Shown here: positions 13,282 to 62,498 of the stretch, one piece after another
Position numbering within the stretch: the first letter of the stretch is position 1
Layout of the letters: each line of letters opens with the position of its first letter
Assembly (NCBI GenBank): GCA_903842795.1
Contig: CAIMNJ010000018.1
Span: 67,246 to 131,245 of the forward strand
Origin: an uncultured bacterium
GTDB taxonomy: Bacteria; Patescibacteriota; Microgenomatia; UBA1400; PJMF01
Reading direction: 5' to 3'
DNA length: 64,000 nucleotides
Translations under genes and position numbers: made by a program
Notes under the pieces: generated by a model
Seen by the model: the letters and a program-made list of their open reading frames with translations, nothing else
Told to the model about the DNA's origin: nothing
Databases searched by the model: none

Positions 13282-13682
13282 GGGGATGTATTGCTTTGAC
13301 GTAACATCTTTTAGATAGTCGCAAATCGTCTTTCAGATCAAAAGACGTAAAAGAAGATCTAGACATAACTGTCGAAAATATAATTTCAAAAGCAAAGAGT
13401 GCTGTCAGTAATTTTATTGCCAGTTTCAATGCTCCAGCCTTAGCTTATTGCTAATGCCGGCATTTATTTATTTGTGTGAGTGATGCAAATAAATAAGTGG
13501 AAACCCAGTCACTTTGCAGATTATTCGCCTTTGCGTGGCGGATAATTCTAAGAAATTAACGCAGATAAATTAGAGAGAGTTTGTTTGTAATACTTACTAA
13601 TTTTTAATCAAAAATAAACTAGATTTGTAGAAGCTATTTGAACAGCTGGATACGGACGCGGGGTCATAACCCGCCATCTCCA
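13282..13682 (+). ncRNA. ssrA: Candidate tmRNA (ssrA), ~400 nt
   Basis: The 5' end GGGGATGTATTGCTTTGACG resembles the tmRNA 5' acceptor plus the GAUUCGACG-like block. The 3' end GGACGCGGGGTCATAACCCGCCATCTCCA matches the tmRNA/tRNA-Ala-like T-arm plus acceptor (compare GGACGGGGGTTCGATTCCCCCGCCTCCACCA). The 5' GGGGATG pairs with the 3' CATCTCC with one G-U. The RNA sits in a 467-nt gene-free gap. The tag reading frame is unresolved; candidates are the 'TAGTC GCA AAT...' resume-like site at 13316-13350 or a frame ending ...NAPALAYC* at 13444. Confidence 0.45.
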
Positions 13683-13703
13683 CTTTTAAAATCTAATAAA
13701 AAT

Positions 13704-23439: not shown

Positions 23440-23544
23440 AATTACAATAATAACATTAGCCTACTACAGAGTCGAACTCCTGTCTGTCCTTGCTCGGTCT
23501 CATCCTCCATCTCCACTCCGGATATTCCCTAGCGAAGCTCGGTC

Positions 23545-23575
23545 ATAAAAAACCCCGCTCGAAAGCGGGGTTTTA
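23545..23575 (-). terminator. Rho-independent terminator (structure is bidirectional)
   Basis: AAAAACCCCGCTCGAAAGCGGGGTTTT: a 6-bp GC-rich stem with a 6-nt loop, flanked by an A-run and a T-run. It lies immediately after the stop of ORF 23603-23806. Confidence 0.7.
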
Positions 23576-57322: not shown

Positions 57323-58189
57323 TTAAAGTTCTTCAATTTTGATATTTGGCTGCATATCTGGAGTTTCAATCAAATGAAGATATTTTTCAGTGGTGGTAAT
57401 ACGTTTATGACCAACCAATTGTGATACATAGACCAAAGGAGTACCAGCTTTGAGTTGCTCAACCACAAAAGTATGGCGTAAATCGTTGACTTTGGCATCT
57501 TTGATGCCAGCCAAACGAAAATAGCGATCAATGGCGGTACGGATATTTCTGACCAAGAAAGGACGACAGGTTTTGGTCAAAAATAAAGTTTTCTCTTTGG
57601 CACGTGGACGCAATTTCAAGTAATCTAGAATAGATTTTTTGGCAGCAGCGTTCAAAGGAATACGACGAGCTTCACGAGAATTTTGAGCTTGAATATAAAT
57701 CAATTCTCTCTCAAGATCGATATCAGTTAATTGCAAATAAGCCAATTCACTAATTCTCATACCAGTCTGTAATAAAATTTCCACAATAGCGTGCATTCTG
57801 GCATCAGCGCGACAAGAATCACGCAAAGCGCGATACTCTAAACGAGACAAAATGCGTGGAGGAGTTTGGTCAAATTTTGGCTGAGTAATTTCTTCGGTCG
57901 GATTGATATCTACCAAACCTTCACTCACACAAAAGCGGAAGAAAGCTTTGATAGAATTAATTTTTCTTGAGATAGATTTACTAGTGTAACGCTGTTTCTT
58001 TAGTAATTCTTTAAAATCCTCAATATCTGGTGCACTAACCTCAGAGAGCAAGTTCTTAGATCTCTTACTCATAAAGTCAGCTAACTGCTCAATATCTTTG
58101 CTATAAGCAATTACAGTAGCGTGAGCCTTACCATTGGCTCTTAAGCTATCAGTAAACTTTGCTTGTGCATCAACTAGATTTGTGTGCAT
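57323..58189 (-). CDS. Tyrosine site-specific recombinase (XerC/XerD or integrase family)
   Basis: C-terminal catalytic region with R...HxxR...Y (LRHTFVVEQLKAGTPLVYVSQLVGHKRITTTEKYLHL) and an N-terminal SAM-like core-binding domain. 288 aa. Confidence 0.85.
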   Translation of the reverse strand: MHTNLVDAQAKFTDSLRANGKAHATVIAYSKDIEQLADFMSKRSKNLLSEVSAPDIEDFKELLKKQRYTSKSISRKINSIKAFFRFCVSEGLVDINPTEEITQPKFDQTPPRILSRLEYRALRDSCRADARMHAIVEILLQTGMRISELAYLQLTDIDLERELIYIQAQNSREARRIPLNAAAKKSILDYLKLRPRAKEKTLFLTKTCRPFLVRNIRTAIDRYFRLAGIKDAKVNDLRHTFVVEQLKAGTPLVYVSQLVGHKRITTTEKYLHLIETPDMQPNIKIEEL

Positions 58190-58308: not shown

Positions 58309-58683
58309 ATGGATAAAGAAAAAATAAAAAATTTATTAGAATCTCCTATGGTTGCAGTTTTTTTTACAATCATTTGTATTTTGGTAATCTTTTCCTTACA
58401 CAAAAGCAGTCAAAAAGCAGAAATTTCTAAAGAAAGCATTAAAAACTTAGAAGAAGGACTGAAAATAGAAGAAAAAAATCTAGAAAAAGAAAAAGATAAA
58501 TTGAAAAATAGTCAAGAACAACTAACCATAGAAAAAATGAAGAGAAACGAATTGCTGCTTAAAAGAGAAGGTGAAATCACTATTCAAATTCCAGAAAAAG
58601 AACAAGCCCTAGCAAAAAATAGTGAAGAAAAAGAAGAAACAAATAGTCCGCAAAAAGAATGGAAAGAGTTGCTGTTTGATTAG
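58309..58683 (+). CDS. Hypothetical TM + coiled-coil protein (124 aa)
   Basis: One TM helix (MVAVFFTIICILVIFSL) followed by a K/E-rich coiled coil. No family recognised. Confidence 0.45.
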   Translation: MDKEKIKNLLESPMVAVFFTIICILVIFSLHKSSQKAEISKESIKNLEEGLKIEEKNLEKEKDKLKNSQEQLTIEKMKRNELLLKREGEITIQIPEKEQALAKNSEEKEETNSPQKEWKELLFD

Positions 58684-58743
58684 AAAAAACAAAGCTTCTC
58701 TAGTCTTGCCATATTAGCCAGAAATTTGTTATAGTAAATTACT

Positions 58744-59898
58744 ATGTCACTTCCATTTGAAGCTCAAAGATTAAGTTTAAAAGAAGCACAAAAAGAAGCT
58801 GCTTCTTTGCAAGAAAAAGTTGGTGATCATGGAGAAACAGAAGATTATAAAGATGCTTACAGCGAATTAATAGCCGAACAAACAAAAGAGAAACTCGCTA
58901 ATAGCAACTGGGAAGAAACTTTAAGATTCAACGTTGCTGCAATTGATCGTAATGAAGATATGCTCAATCAAAGTAGCCGCACTAAGCGTGAGCTAACTGA
59001 GCAAAAGCGTCGCATTGAGGATCAAATAAGAAGATCAAGAAATTTAGAAGATAATCAAAAGTTGTTTGCCGAAGTTTTAGAAAAAATTGAAAAAGGAGCT
59101 AGTGAAGTTCCAGTTGGATTATATGATAGTGATCTTTATTTTGTTTTAATTGACATTGCTAAAAGTGCTAGCGACAAAGAACTAAAAAATTCTATCTGGC
59201 AAAAATTAAGCGACGCCTCATTCAATAATCGTGACACCAAAAATACTCAGATATCCGAAGTAACTCTCACACCAGAAGAAATTGACCTGCTAAAAAAAGC
59301 AATTCAAAAATCCAAAGAAAATTCTGTAGAAGAATTTGCCAGTCTTGGTAAATCTTTGAAAGAAAGTAGGGCTAAGTATGAAGAAGCTCACAGTATAAGT
59401 TTAGCTGAAGAGCAAGAGCTGATGGATCTACACGACATCACCATAGCTGCTATCGAGGTCTTGGATCAAAGAGAAGAAGAACAGGGAGCTCCTGCCTATC
59501 CAGATGAAACTGAAGCTGCAGAAAACAAACATAAAGCATATCTTAATAGAATTGATTGGAGAAAAAAACAATTAGATAAGATTGGTTATATGAAAGTTCC
59601 AAGAGGAAAAGAGATTAGTCGCAAATGGGCAATTTATGCAAAAATGGATGGCCATTACTTTTTATTAAATAAGGGTCATGAGTATGATGATGTACACCCA
59701 GTAGAAATTCTAACCTATCGCATTCCAGAAAGAACACCTGCTGTTTACGCTGAAGGCATGATGATGGCCCGTGGAGACGCTTCTTTGCAAGCAGTCATAA
59801 ATAACGGTATTTTGGAAAAACGCTCAGAATTAGATGTGAGAGAATATGAAAAAGATTTAAACGCTCATTTATTGGAATTAAAAATTCAAATTCGCTAG
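58744..59898 (+). CDS. Hypothetical protein (384 aa, helical and charged)
   Basis: Complete ORF followed by a strong terminator at 59915-59951. No motif recognised. Confidence 0.5.
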   Translation: MSLPFEAQRLSLKEAQKEAASLQEKVGDHGETEDYKDAYSELIAEQTKEKLANSNWEETLRFNVAAIDRNEDMLNQSSRTKRELTEQKRRIEDQIRRSRNLEDNQKLFAEVLEKIEKGASEVPVGLYDSDLYFVLIDIAKSASDKELKNSIWQKLSDASFNNRDTKNTQISEVTLTPEEIDLLKKAIQKSKENSVEEFASLGKSLKESRAKYEEAHSISLAEEQELMDLHDITIAAIEVLDQREEEQGAPAYPDETEAAENKHKAYLNRIDWRKKQLDKIGYMKVPRGKEISRKWAIYAKMDGHYFLLNKGHEYDDVHPVEILTYRIPERTPAVYAEGMMMARGDASLQAVINNGILEKRSELDVREYEKDLNAHLLELKIQIR

Positions 59899-59914
59899 CA
59901 AATAACTTATAAAC

Positions 59915-59951
59915 AAAAAAAGAACGGCCTTTAGCCGTTCTTTTTATTTTT
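59915..59951 (+). terminator. Rho-independent terminator
   Basis: AAAAAAAGAACGGCCTTTAGCCGTTCTTTTTATTTTTG: a 7-bp stem plus T-run after ORF 58744-59898. Confidence 0.8.
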
Positions 59952-60039
59952 GTTGCGGAACTTCGTCCTCCGTCTCCACTTCGGACACTTCTTCGCATAA
60001 GCTCAGTCGGAGTCAACGATTCATAGCTGATACAAACAA

Positions 60040-60077
60040 AAATAAAAAATCTGGCATGAGCCAGATTCTTTATTTTT
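60040..60077 (-). terminator. Rho-independent terminator downstream of tRNA-fMet
   Basis: On the minus strand ATCTGGCTCATGCCAGAT (7-bp stem) is followed by TTTTTATTTTTG, directly after the tRNA 3' end. Confidence 0.7.
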
Positions 60078-60078
60078 G

Positions 60079-60147
60079 TTGCGGAACTAGGAGTCGAACC
60101 TAGCCTGTGGGATTATGAGCCCCACGTGCACCGTACACTATCCCGCG
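60079..60147 (-). tRNA. Initiator tRNA-fMet (anticodon CAU), compact 69-nt form
   Basis: The minus strand reads CGCGGGA-TA-GTG-TACGGTG-CAC-G-TGGGG-CTCATAA-TCCCA-CAGG-CTAGG-TTCGACT-CCTAG-TTCCGCA-A. It has the C1·A72 mismatch, three consecutive G·C pairs in the anticodon stem and a CTCATAA loop, all initiator hallmarks, with a reduced D-arm. No CCA is encoded. Confidence 0.8.
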
Positions 60148-60250
60148 TATATATGTTAGGTGGTTATTGTAACAAAAGAATATAGCATTATCAAGCAAGC
60201 TGCGCTAAAATACTCTCCTAGGTAAAACGCACATTGTAAATTACCAATTA

Positions 60251-60324
60251 GGCGGGATAGCTCAGCTGGTTAGAGCATCGGATTCATAAACCGAAGGTCC
60301 TGAGTTCGAATCTCAGTCCCGCTA
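60251..60324 (+). tRNA. tRNA-Met (CAU; elongator, or tRNA-Ile2 if lysidinylated)
   Basis: GGCGGGA-TA-GCTC-AGCTGGTTA-GAGC-A-TCGGA-TTCATAA-ACCGA-AGGTC-CTGAG-TTCGAAT-CTCAG-TCCCGCT-A, a 74-nt cloverleaf. The anticodon is CAT. Confidence 0.85.
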
Positions 60325-60329
60325 CTTTA

Positions 60330-60365
60330 TAAAAAAACAAAAAAAGGGACTCGTGAGAGCCCCTT
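60330..60365. terminator. Bidirectional terminator between tRNA-Met (+) and groEL (-)
   Basis: AAAAAAAGGGACTCGTGAGAGCCCCTTTT: a GC-rich stem with A-run and T-run flanks. Confidence 0.6.
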
Positions 60366-60388
60366 TTCAGTTTTAATTAAACCAAGGA

Positions 60389-62035
<1,647 letters not shown>

Positions 62036-62051
62036 CTATTTAAATTAAAGT

Positions 62052-62498
62052 TTATTTAATAATTGCTAAAATATCTTCAAATTTTAAAAATTGATACTCT
62101 ACGTCACCAATCTTAAACTCATTACCTCCCCATTTTTTATAAATAACCTTGTCGCCAACTTGAACTGAGGAACTCGAACAAGAGCAGGCTGAAGCACAGC
62201 AAGAACCTTTTTGTTCTTCTTCATCTTCATCGCAATCACAGCATCCTCCACCACAGCAACTATCACTGGCTTTTTCTTCTGAAGAGCAGCAGCCTTCTCC
62301 GCAACAATCATCATCTTCACAGCGATCATTGCATTCGCAATCTGCTTCACCAACAGCCAAAACAACACCATATTGAGGTTTTTCACTATCACTCTCTGAC
62401 AAAATAATGCCAGATTTAGTTTTTTCTTCTGACTTAGCTGGTTCAACTAAAACATAACCTTTGGTGGGTTGGATTTTTTTTATATCTAAATCTTTCAT
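62052..62498 (-). CDS. groS: Co-chaperonin GroES with a ~55-aa Cys/Asp/Glu-rich insertion (16 Cys)
   Basis: The GroES N-terminus (IQPTKGYVLVEPAKSEEKTKSGIIL) and C-terminus (VQVGDKVIYKKWGGNEFKIGDVEYQFLKFEDILAII) are conserved. In between lies ADCECNDRCEDDDCCGEGCCSSEEKASDSCCGGGCCDCDEDEEEQKGSCCASACSCSSSS. 148 aa versus the usual ~95. Confidence 0.9.
   Translation of the reverse strand: MKDLDIKKIQPTKGYVLVEPAKSEEKTKSGIILSESDSEKPQYGVVLAVGEADCECNDRCEDDDCCGEGCCSSEEKASDSCCGGGCCDCDEDEEEQKGSCCASACSCSSSSVQVGDKVIYKKWGGNEFKIGDVEYQFLKFEDILAIIK

Follow-up and report, generated by a model that had tools for sequence, protein, structure and literature searches.

A tRNA 3′-end copy probably forms the tail of a modular structured repeat in the initiator-tRNA trailer of a Patescibacteria genome

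Cis-mobilizable elements (CIMEs) are elements flanked by attachment (att) sites, a concept that comes from ICESt1/ICESt3, and islands at tRNA genes are likewise bounded by attL and attR. RNAs with tRNA-like parts include transfer-messenger RNA (tmRNA) with its acceptor end, viral tRNA-like structures and YrlA. Pneumococcal BOX elements are composed of boxA, a variable number of boxB and boxC (PMC3049150). Here we describe a locus that partly resembles all of these. It lies in a stretch of 64,000 nucleotides of contig CAIMNJ010000018.1 (the window), from an uncultured organism which its GroEL and RpiB relatives put in Patescibacteria, near Pacebacteria and Microgenomates. A 20-nt sequence that covers the 3′ end of an initiator-type tRNA gene (tRNA-fMet) is repeated downstream of it, at the end of a conserved element that we call the unit. 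We hold it moderately probable that a modular, GC-rich, structured interspersed element lies in the initiator-tRNA trailer and has this second copy as its intrinsic 3′ end. The unit itself is, as far as sequence comparison can tell, best read as a modular interspersed repeat that would fold as RNA; it appears to be gained, lost and multiplied at the DNA level, at a place that coincides with an insertion hotspot of islands carrying a large serine recombinase (LSR).

The unit, like a BOX element, is composite, having a 5′ module, one or two internal modules of ~45 nt and a 3′ module. Also, it is intergenic, often downstream of genes and by terminators, shows insertion polymorphism and is predicted to fold if transcribed. 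Dispersal with insertion polymorphism, as in BOX elements or miniature inverted-repeat transposable elements, was found: the window has two copies, of which the one at 23500-23547 is missing from orthologous spacers. The unit differs from BOX in having no sequence similarity to it, no demonstrable terminal inverted repeats or target-site duplications and no candidate transposase, and in its 3′ module, which is a copy of the initiator-tRNA 3′ end and tied to that tRNA, with 2 copies in 64 kb. With tRNA islands and CIMEs the locus shares the tRNA 3′ end duplicated downstream, the presence or absence of a segment bounded by repeats, the tandem accretion of cargo at one tRNA and, in relatives, an LSR that uses the same sequence. 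However, the segment in the window is 106 bp long and without recombination genes, the nearby tyrosine recombinase appears chromosomal, the conserved part shows RNA-type covariation, and the integrases at the site are serine recombinases, which would neither need nor create a long direct repeat. As in tRNA-like RNAs, a tRNA acceptor and T stem are represented in the unit by their exact 3′ strand, whereas the 5′ strand of the acceptor helix, the T loop, CCA and a match to Rfam clan CL00001 are lacking. An integron attC site or cassette array was rejected, as the integrase model gives the recombinase 77 bits against a cut-off of 265 and the unit consists of three serial hairpins; the unit ends, read from the sequences, also do not fit the core sites RYYYAAC/GTTRRRY.

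The 20-nt direct repeat TTTATTTTTGTTGCGGAACT has exactly two exact copies in the window, at 59943-59962 and 60069-60088, against a chance expectation of 0.03, and in 0 of 100 dinucleotide shuffles were two or more matches obtained. The repeat reported in an earlier sequence-only reading of this DNA is therefore real, though its spacing, given there as 124 bp, is an offset of 126 nt from copy to copy with 106 nt of intervening DNA. Within the 64-kb window there is no further copy at up to 3 mismatches, including the region beyond the recombinase gene where a search for a third copy had been suggested, and no third copy of the 10-mer core GTTGCGGAAC at up to 1 mismatch. Nor did a search for a phage attP give any match of the 20-mer in IMG/VR. 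Copy 1 takes in 9 nt at the end of the minus-strand tRNA(CAU) and 11 nt of trailer. On the minus strand a hairpin and a T-run follow each copy, and the two hairpins differ. The coordinates are collected in the table. For comparison, metagenome contigs were retrieved by a 17-mer of the tRNA D arm, which gave 120 loci, ~99 of them with the same tRNA; comparison loci are given L numbers. Hairpin 1 also stands 3′ of the tRNA in the unit-free relatives L144, L105, L134 and L196, and the window locus is found 100% identical in contigs of other samples. Copy 2, which had been described as outside any gene, is indeed outside the protein genes but inside a conserved non-coding element, and since it belongs to this structured element it is not a bare excision scar, as had also been proposed.

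Table. Features of the window around the initiator-type tRNA gene and the second module copy
Feature	Coordinates	Strand	Remarks
Second 45-nt module copy	23500..23547	-	R1; no tRNA-identical tail
Xer-like tyrosine recombinase, 288 aa	57323..58189	-	Pfam Phage_integrase and SAM-like N domain
DivIC/FtsB-like small membrane coiled-coil ORF	58309..58683	+	Pfam DivIC E 3e-6, just under cut-off
orf384, lineage-specific orphan	58744..59898	+	between the unit's tail and the DivIC-like gene
Bidirectional terminator-like hairpin 2	59917..59945	both	ends unit (minus) and orf384 (plus)
Repeat copy 2	59943..59962	-	tRNA-like tail of unit and A-tract of terminator 2
Structured element (unit)	59951..60034, approx.	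-	R1 match, homologous copies, covariation
Single-stranded tail of unit, AGTTCCGCAACA	59951-59962	-	
Hairpin P1/P2 of unit, with purine-rich internal loop	59965-59986	-	
Helix P3 of unit, with tandem G.A	59991-60006	-	
5′ hairpin P4 of unit	60010-60022	-	capped by triloop or inserted stem-loop
Terminator-like hairpin 1 and T-run	60035..60068	-	GAATCTGGC-TCAT-GCCAGATT
Repeat copy 1	60069..60088	-	tRNA positions 65-73 (AGTTCCGCA) and trailer ACAAAAATAAA
Initiator-type tRNA(CAU)	60080..60148	-	C1 x A72 mismatch, 5-nt D loop, CCA not encoded
Promoter-like site of tRNA	60166..60194	-	TTGATA, 17-nt spacer, TG-TACAAT
Second tRNA(CAU), elongator Met or Ile2	60251..60325	+	divergent from tRNA-fMet; pair kept in relatives

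On the tRNA-sense strand the order is the hairpin terminator of the tRNA, P4, one or two 45-nt modules, the tail and a second terminator, so that the unit lies between two terminators on the strand of the tRNA. Each module is made of helix P3 with its tandem G.A and of hairpin P1/P2 with its purine-rich internal loop, and the tail is a stretch of 12-17 unpaired nt that repeats the 3′ strand of the T stem and acceptor of tRNA-fMet. The consensus reads ...GA(A/C)UCUGACCGAGC-[variable hairpin]-GCGAGGGAAUGUCCGRAGCNNNGGCGGAGGAC-CUAGUCCCGCAACA, then the terminator, which follows most unit tails. The body of the unit is nearly invariant and conserved about as well as the tRNA, whereas the flanking hairpins are wholly different between lineages; the module has a GC content of 52-55% against ~35% in the surrounding genome region. 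The tail usually follows the variant of the local tRNA (UUCCGC/UCCCGC, CCUAG/CCCAG, AACA/AAAUUA), the match failing in L106, L118 and L151, and the contiguous identity between tRNA end and tail is 13-23 nt, with 47 nt in L101. Rfam has no family for the unit at the gathering threshold, only terminator-driven noise appearing at E<=10, and a search of the units of 7 relatives against Rfam 15 likewise gave no family. A weak complementarity of the 5′ TTGYGG of the unit with the 3′ CCGCAA is partly due to the extended terminator stem. It may be noted that the unit of L125 (tRNA+75 to +235) is a variant, in which the 5′ hairpin and tail are the usual ones and the middle differs (a GGGCTGAAAGCCC hairpin).

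For the analysis of covariation 25 distinct modules were used, with the variable loop spliced out and the alignment hand-anchored on sequence motifs. In P3, CC-GA-GC pairs with GC-GA-GG, the tandem G.A being in the middle; in P1, GYCY pairs with RGRC; in P2, GY pairs with RC and closes a tetraloop; a symmetric purine-rich internal loop sets P1 and P2 apart. Standard pairs occupy 95.2% of the cells compared to 85.8% in shuffles, and the observed value was reached by 0 of 500 of these. Changes on both sides occur in 7 of 10 pairs (shuffle mean 4.3) and in 34 cells (shuffle mean 9.1). On sliding the partner by 1-3 columns the paired cells drop to 19-52%. P1 is paired in 100% of the cells, one position showing GC, AU and GU and another showing UA, CG and UG, and in P3 the window variant GACUGAGC...GCGAAG is a compensated form of the consensus GACCGAGC...GCGAGG. 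The loop between the P3 strands is 3-22 nt long, with a GNRA tetraloop in L151. As P1 and P2 together have 7 G.U pairs and 0 A.C pairs, the tRNA-sense strand is favoured as the folding strand. P1, P2 and P3 thus behave as RNA-type covarying helices, which are short and come from a hand-anchored alignment. Some other pairings were tried and rejected. A closing helix of the 5′ UGUGG with the tail, and a pairing of GGUU with GACC, are inconsistent across lineages. An acceptor-like helix of GCGAGGG with the tail, which would make a minihelix or tRNA mimic, was rejected because the changes at the GCGAGGG site (GCGAAG in the window, ACGAGG in L131, GAGAGG in L123b) are compensated in P3 and not in the tail.

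Homologues of the unit were found in more than 20 related loci. It is adjacent to the tRNA in 14 of 77 distinct tRNA-fMet loci and farther off in 4, and in those 14 the second tRNA-end copy lies 126-145 nt downstream, always as the 3′ end of the same conserved sequence. Units stand 3′ of the same tRNA in L101, L102, L106, L109, L115, L123, L124, L131, L133, L146, L155, L161 and L164; more distant or multiple units are seen in L085, L087, L118, L123 and L151. A covariance model of the module (R1) matched the window twice, both times on the minus strand (59963-60011, 61.7 bits, E 1.7e-14; 23500-23547, 56 bits, E 5e-13). In the tRNA-fMet loci L083-L182 it gave 29 matches, each on the strand of the tRNA-fMet of that locus. 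It found nothing in 1.15 Mb taken from other loci, nor in 20 viral loci. A pattern for the module had 20 matches in viral contigs, of which R1 confirmed none. Among the closest relatives (Xer recombinase >90% identical) the unit is present in the window, L161, L131/L176, L146 and L118 and absent from L144, L121 and L126, and it is also absent from L105, L134 and L196, which have the tRNA variant and terminator of L144. The segment of ~110-130 bp between the repeats is therefore present or absent among close relatives with its edges at the shared tRNA-end sequence: L161 equals L121 plus hairpin, unit and tail, and L131 equals an L144-like site plus hairpin, unit and tail. In L194 (tRNA+60 to +100) a 15-nt repeat GTCCCGCAACAATAT occurs twice, 25 nt apart, and looks like what would be left by deletion of the unit that is present in its relative L101.

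A locus has 1-3 units and up to five module matches (two units in L123, three in L151), and the module is duplicated in two of the three L151 units and in the single L085 unit. In L151 and L085 units are interleaved with genes for Fic/DOC, for a GARS-like and a SET-domain protein, for MNT/HepT and for AbiEii. The variable segments from tRNA-fMet to the units (L151 5363-10734, L085 1967-3427) carry toxin-antitoxin and defence-type genes and genes for ATP-grasp and SET-domain proteins; at the end of L151 a fragment like an IS30-type transposase was noticed by eye, for which Pfam gave no match. On searching genome contigs by GroEL, only BroJett032 (L003) was found to have the same tRNA pair, and the unit is absent there. 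The open reading frame (ORF) orf384 was unusable as a synteny anchor, as it has no homologues.

Module copies in the 64-kb window are two. The second, at 23500-23547, is in an insertion of ~85 nt (~23455-23550) between a terminator and rpiB, which is missing from the orthologous spacer in L315 and L316 and is left as a decayed trace in L318; no clear target-site duplication was found at this copy. As it lies ~15 nt upstream of rpiB, its position suggests that it could have an effect on rpiB expression. Beyond the second copy, on the minus strand of 23455-23550, come a further, degenerate module and GGAGTTCGACTCTGTAGTAGGC, the latter loosely similar to the T arm and acceptor 3′ strand of tRNA-fMet.

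The same tRNA end is used by other elements. In 10 distinct loci it is directly followed by ...GTGGGAATAGCGGGATC..., and 8 of the 10 have a convergent LSR gene; in L112 and L135 little or nothing of that gene is kept. The element ends are GTGGGAATAGCGGGATC on the left and ...CCTCCCACATTCTC on the right. The LSR of L118 (334-2085) has 583 aa and matches the Resolvase domain (E 7e-16) and phrog_95 (E 2e-45), and L118 as a whole equals an L146-like locus with a 10.7-kb element placed between the tRNA and the hairpin and unit. From L118 compared with L146, the LSR crossover would lie in or beside GCAA. In L123 an LSR element of the same kind is at the tail of the unit and not at the tRNA. No LSR gene was found in the window by tblastn. 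The left-end motif is absent from viral contigs, the 92 pattern matches there being chance. The view that a duplicated tRNA 3′ end marks DNA traffic is therefore borne out by the presence or absence of the unit and by the islands at this end, but the islands use an LSR and not a tyrosine recombinase. The element family comprises L118 349-11000 and members in L139, L156, L173, L175, L180, L183, L186, L187 and L122; the L118 element (~10.7 kb) carries a macro-domain-like ORF (by eye) and helix-turn-helix ORFs. The unit as part of the LSR attP was considered and set aside, as the right end of the LSR element has varied flanks and the unit looks resident, which is not decisive.

We picture the unit of the favoured reading, a modular RNA-folding interspersed repeat, as follows. 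As it has no promoter of its own, its RNA would be read through from the tRNA-fMet transcript or processed out of it, and then fold. At the DNA level it may spread or be lost by recombination through the 13-20 nt of identity with the tRNA end. Its tail would duplicate the left half of the attB used by the LSR islands; each unit would therefore add a landing site, and this would build arrays of cargo and units. Several observations weigh against the reading. The helices are short, in blocks of 2-4 bp, and P4 and any helix closing the 5′ and 3′ ends are not well supported. Single-sequence folding energies are no better than those of shuffles except in L151 (z = -2.4), and RNAalifold on the raw MAFFT alignment recovers the structure only in part. 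A promoter-like site for the unit was looked for and not found, and a strong terminator sits before it. The identity of tRNA trailer and unit trailer runs past the tRNA end for 8 nt in the window and for 32 nt in L101, which fits recombination or duplication at the DNA level better than selection on an RNA. Also, the locus frequencies are biased because the metagenome contigs were sampled by a tRNA pattern.

The last but one of these points is shared by the rival that survives best, which we nevertheless think rather unlikely, namely that the unit is a DNA-level att relic: an attP-derived arm of small integrative or cis-mobilizable elements at the tRNA-fMet 3′ end, moved by an LSR or by the neighbouring Xer acting in trans, with the 20-mer as crossover core and the window as a minimal element without cargo. 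Presence and absence are bounded by direct repeats as this would require, and the identity continues past the tRNA end into the trailer. Cargo and unit alternate in the arrays of L151, L085 and L123, with Fic/DOC, MNT/HepT and AbiEii; in L123 an LSR element is attached at the tail; in L118, L085 and L151 the unit directly adjoins the right end of such an element; and the Xer gene is always close by. However, the minimal units have no integrase, and a free circle of 110-130 bp is physically implausible. The LSR right end (…CACATTCTC) meets differing host flanks, which would place the unit outside the LSR element. Local hairpins that covary, G.U pairs that favour one strand, and purine loops that are conserved without being complementary are features of an RNA and not of protein-binding repeats, and the unit is not one long imperfect palindrome of the integron attC kind. 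Also, the module copy at 23500-23547 is inserted away from any tRNA, and the unit tails of L151 read TCCCGC where the local tRNA has TTCCGC.

A bolder version of the favoured reading would make the unit a new class of mobile modular structured RNA with the tRNA-fMet 3′ end as its functional tail, and this we put forward as speculation with little expectation that it is right. In that case the tail in DNA would be a portable secondary attB that recruits LSR islands and leads to cassette-like arrays beside tRNA-fMet. In RNA it could offer the acceptor 3′ strand of tRNA-fMet as a decoy or guide, with enzymes or toxins acting on tRNA 3′ ends as possible partners; AbiEii and HepT-type cargo is present in the arrays. 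The co-variation of tail and host tRNA would then reflect selection for matching and not just gene conversion.

That copy 2 is the rest of a degenerate tandem second tRNA-fMet, a pseudo-tRNA reduced to its 3′ end, appears improbable. The tail is identical to the tRNA and the unit segment GCGAGGGAAUGUCCGGAGCA looks by eye like tRNA positions 2-22, but the similarity between body and tRNA is matched by 157-851 of 1000 shuffles, and an origin of the unit body from the tRNA 5′ half was dropped because the similarity is no better than this. Neither ARAGORN nor Rfam, even at E<=10, calls a tRNA there; the body has a covarying structure of its own and its module can be duplicated; and the acceptor-like pairing of GCGAGGG with the tail is uncompensated, compensation being in P3.

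The sequence-only reading had taken the recombinase gene at 57323-58189 and the ORFs at 58309-59898 as an integrated element in tRNA-fMet, with the two 20-mers as attL and attR. The recombinase and the two plus-strand ORFs are located as it said. Besides the duplicated tRNA 3′ end, it could point to the tyrosine recombinase 1.8 kb away, to the two plus-strand ORFs that break the strand bias and to the orphan orf384. Yet the repeats, with 106 bp between them, are both to one side of those genes, no third copy exists in the window, and the recombinase and DivIC-like ORF are syntenic in more than 40 relatives regardless of the repeat. As the repeats do not flank the genes and the synteny is conserved, an integrated element carrying the recombinase is refuted on the terms that the sequence-only reading itself had set, and in this form it is hardly credible. 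Other facts agree, the Xer models being the best and the GC content at 57-60 kb showing no anomaly. An equally improbable accident is a trivial local event confined to this strain, in which slippage or tandem duplication doubled the trailer of the tRNA with its terminator. It would explain the A-tract, hairpin and T-tract found after each copy, AAAAATAAA of the 20-mer being terminator A-tract. But the hairpins share no sequence similarity, copy 2 is preceded by 84 nt that are conserved in loci whose GroEL is just 68-90% identical to that of the window, and the same arrangement occurs in independent samples.

The recombinase is, from gene order and profile scores, a chromosomal, vertically inherited housekeeping Xer and apparently a syntenic bystander, which had been the fallback of the sequence-only reading. 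By tblastn, more than 40 related metagenome loci were found to keep all or part of the order GroEL / tRNA-fMet / DivIC-like / Xer / TrpRS-Ddl, with Xer orthologues 60-94% identical, and this order is independent of the presence of the repeat. The NCBIfam models give XerA 169, XerD 164 and XerC 160 bits and the integron integrase model 77, which speaks against an integrase of the phage or integrative and conjugative element clade; the PHROG matches named 'integrase' are generic for the fold. The protein is thus like XerC/XerD in domain architecture, best curated models and chromosomal gene order. It differs in that all the scores are below the curated equivalog cut-offs (220-335 bits, that of the integron integrase being 265) and in being a single gene in the window and not a C/D pair. 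The low scores are likely due to a divergent lineage.

The comparison of relatives which the sequence-only reading had called for shows the unit and orf384 to be variable, and no empty site for the block as a whole, since the recombinase and the DivIC-like gene are conserved beside tRNA-fMet in more than 40 loci. Of the ORFs it had named as cargo the DivIC-like one is syntenic, being found beside Xer in ~30 loci by tblastn, and would be an ordinary chromosomal neighbour. Only orf384 is variable: it is found in the window and missing from relatives, and in L161 the tail directly abuts the DivIC-like gene. Except for itself no homologue was found among 5.8 billion proteins, and Pfam, NCBIfam, PHROG and PADLOC gave zero matches; it is the sole cargo-like part of the region. 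The flanking housekeeping genes are those for FtsH, a tRNA-binding protein, Ddl, a TrpRS-like class-I synthetase (Trp/Tyr family), GroEL and GroES. The GroES-like ORF at 62052-62498 on the minus strand has 148 aa, ~50 aa more than usual, and its Cpn10 match is split into two stretches, so that the protein may contain an insertion. Also, a standard one-piece tmRNA is encoded at 13282-13685 on the plus strand (Rfam, 77 bits), 0.8 kb from a tRNA-Val.

The tRNA gene at the centre of the locus was called at 60078-60147 by ARAGORN and at 60079-60147 by Rfam (43 bits). Counting the preceding C, it runs from C1 at 60148 to A73 at 60080, and its 3′ end reads ...GCAA then CA. It has a CAU anticodon, and the Rfam alignment marks position 1 against 72 (C x A) as a non-pair; because this is the bacterial initiator hallmark we assign it to the initiator type, in agreement with the earlier naming as tRNA-fMet. 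The C at position 1 is present in 95 of 99 near-identical copies from related metagenome loci. The hallmark of three consecutive G:C pairs in the anticodon stem (29-31 with 39-41) is incomplete, the window having G29-C41, G30-C40 and G31.U39 and many relatives A29-U41. The promoter-like site of the tRNA is the only one that a promoter scan gave in 59700-60450.

The initiator tRNA of the clade is atypical and extremely conserved, with a 5-nt D loop, U11:A24 and ...GCAACA without an encoded CCA. Its 5′ half is identical in ~99 copies (L083-L202 and window 60080-60148), and its anticodon stem covaries (GUGGGG/CCCAC, GUGAGG/CUCAC, GCGAGG/CUCGC). In two loci a group I intron interrupts the anticodon loop (CUCA|A...) of the same tRNA-fMet (L094 6075-6281 and L168 2039-2244; Rfam, 56 and 54 bits), and the gene is likewise interrupted in L138, L154 and L160. 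In BroJett032 (L003 10200-10280) a partial duplicate of the 3′ two-thirds of the adjoining tRNA-Met(CAU) lies beside the gene, and a 209-aa ORF lies between the two tRNA genes. A literature search on the initiator tRNA of Patescibacteria, on serine recombinases and on tRNA-like RNAs found nothing relevant.

For annotation, the lesson is that a repeat of a tRNA end beside a tyrosine recombinase is insufficient to call an island, the recombinase here being, by its synteny, a housekeeping Xer. The genomes of Patescibacteria are tiny, and very few of their non-coding RNAs or mobile-element systems have been described. At this locus the initiator tRNA is of an unusual kind found throughout the clade, with a reduced D loop, no encoded CCA and sometimes a group I intron, and serine-recombinase islands land time and again at the 3′ end of its gene. 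A conserved, covarying, modular element carries a copy of this 3′ end and stands at the far side of the variable region. Should the element prove to be an RNA, it would belong in RNA libraries as a new family and might be a regulator or mimic linked to the initiator tRNA; as a recombination module, it would account for the build-up of accessory genes at one site in streamlined genomes.

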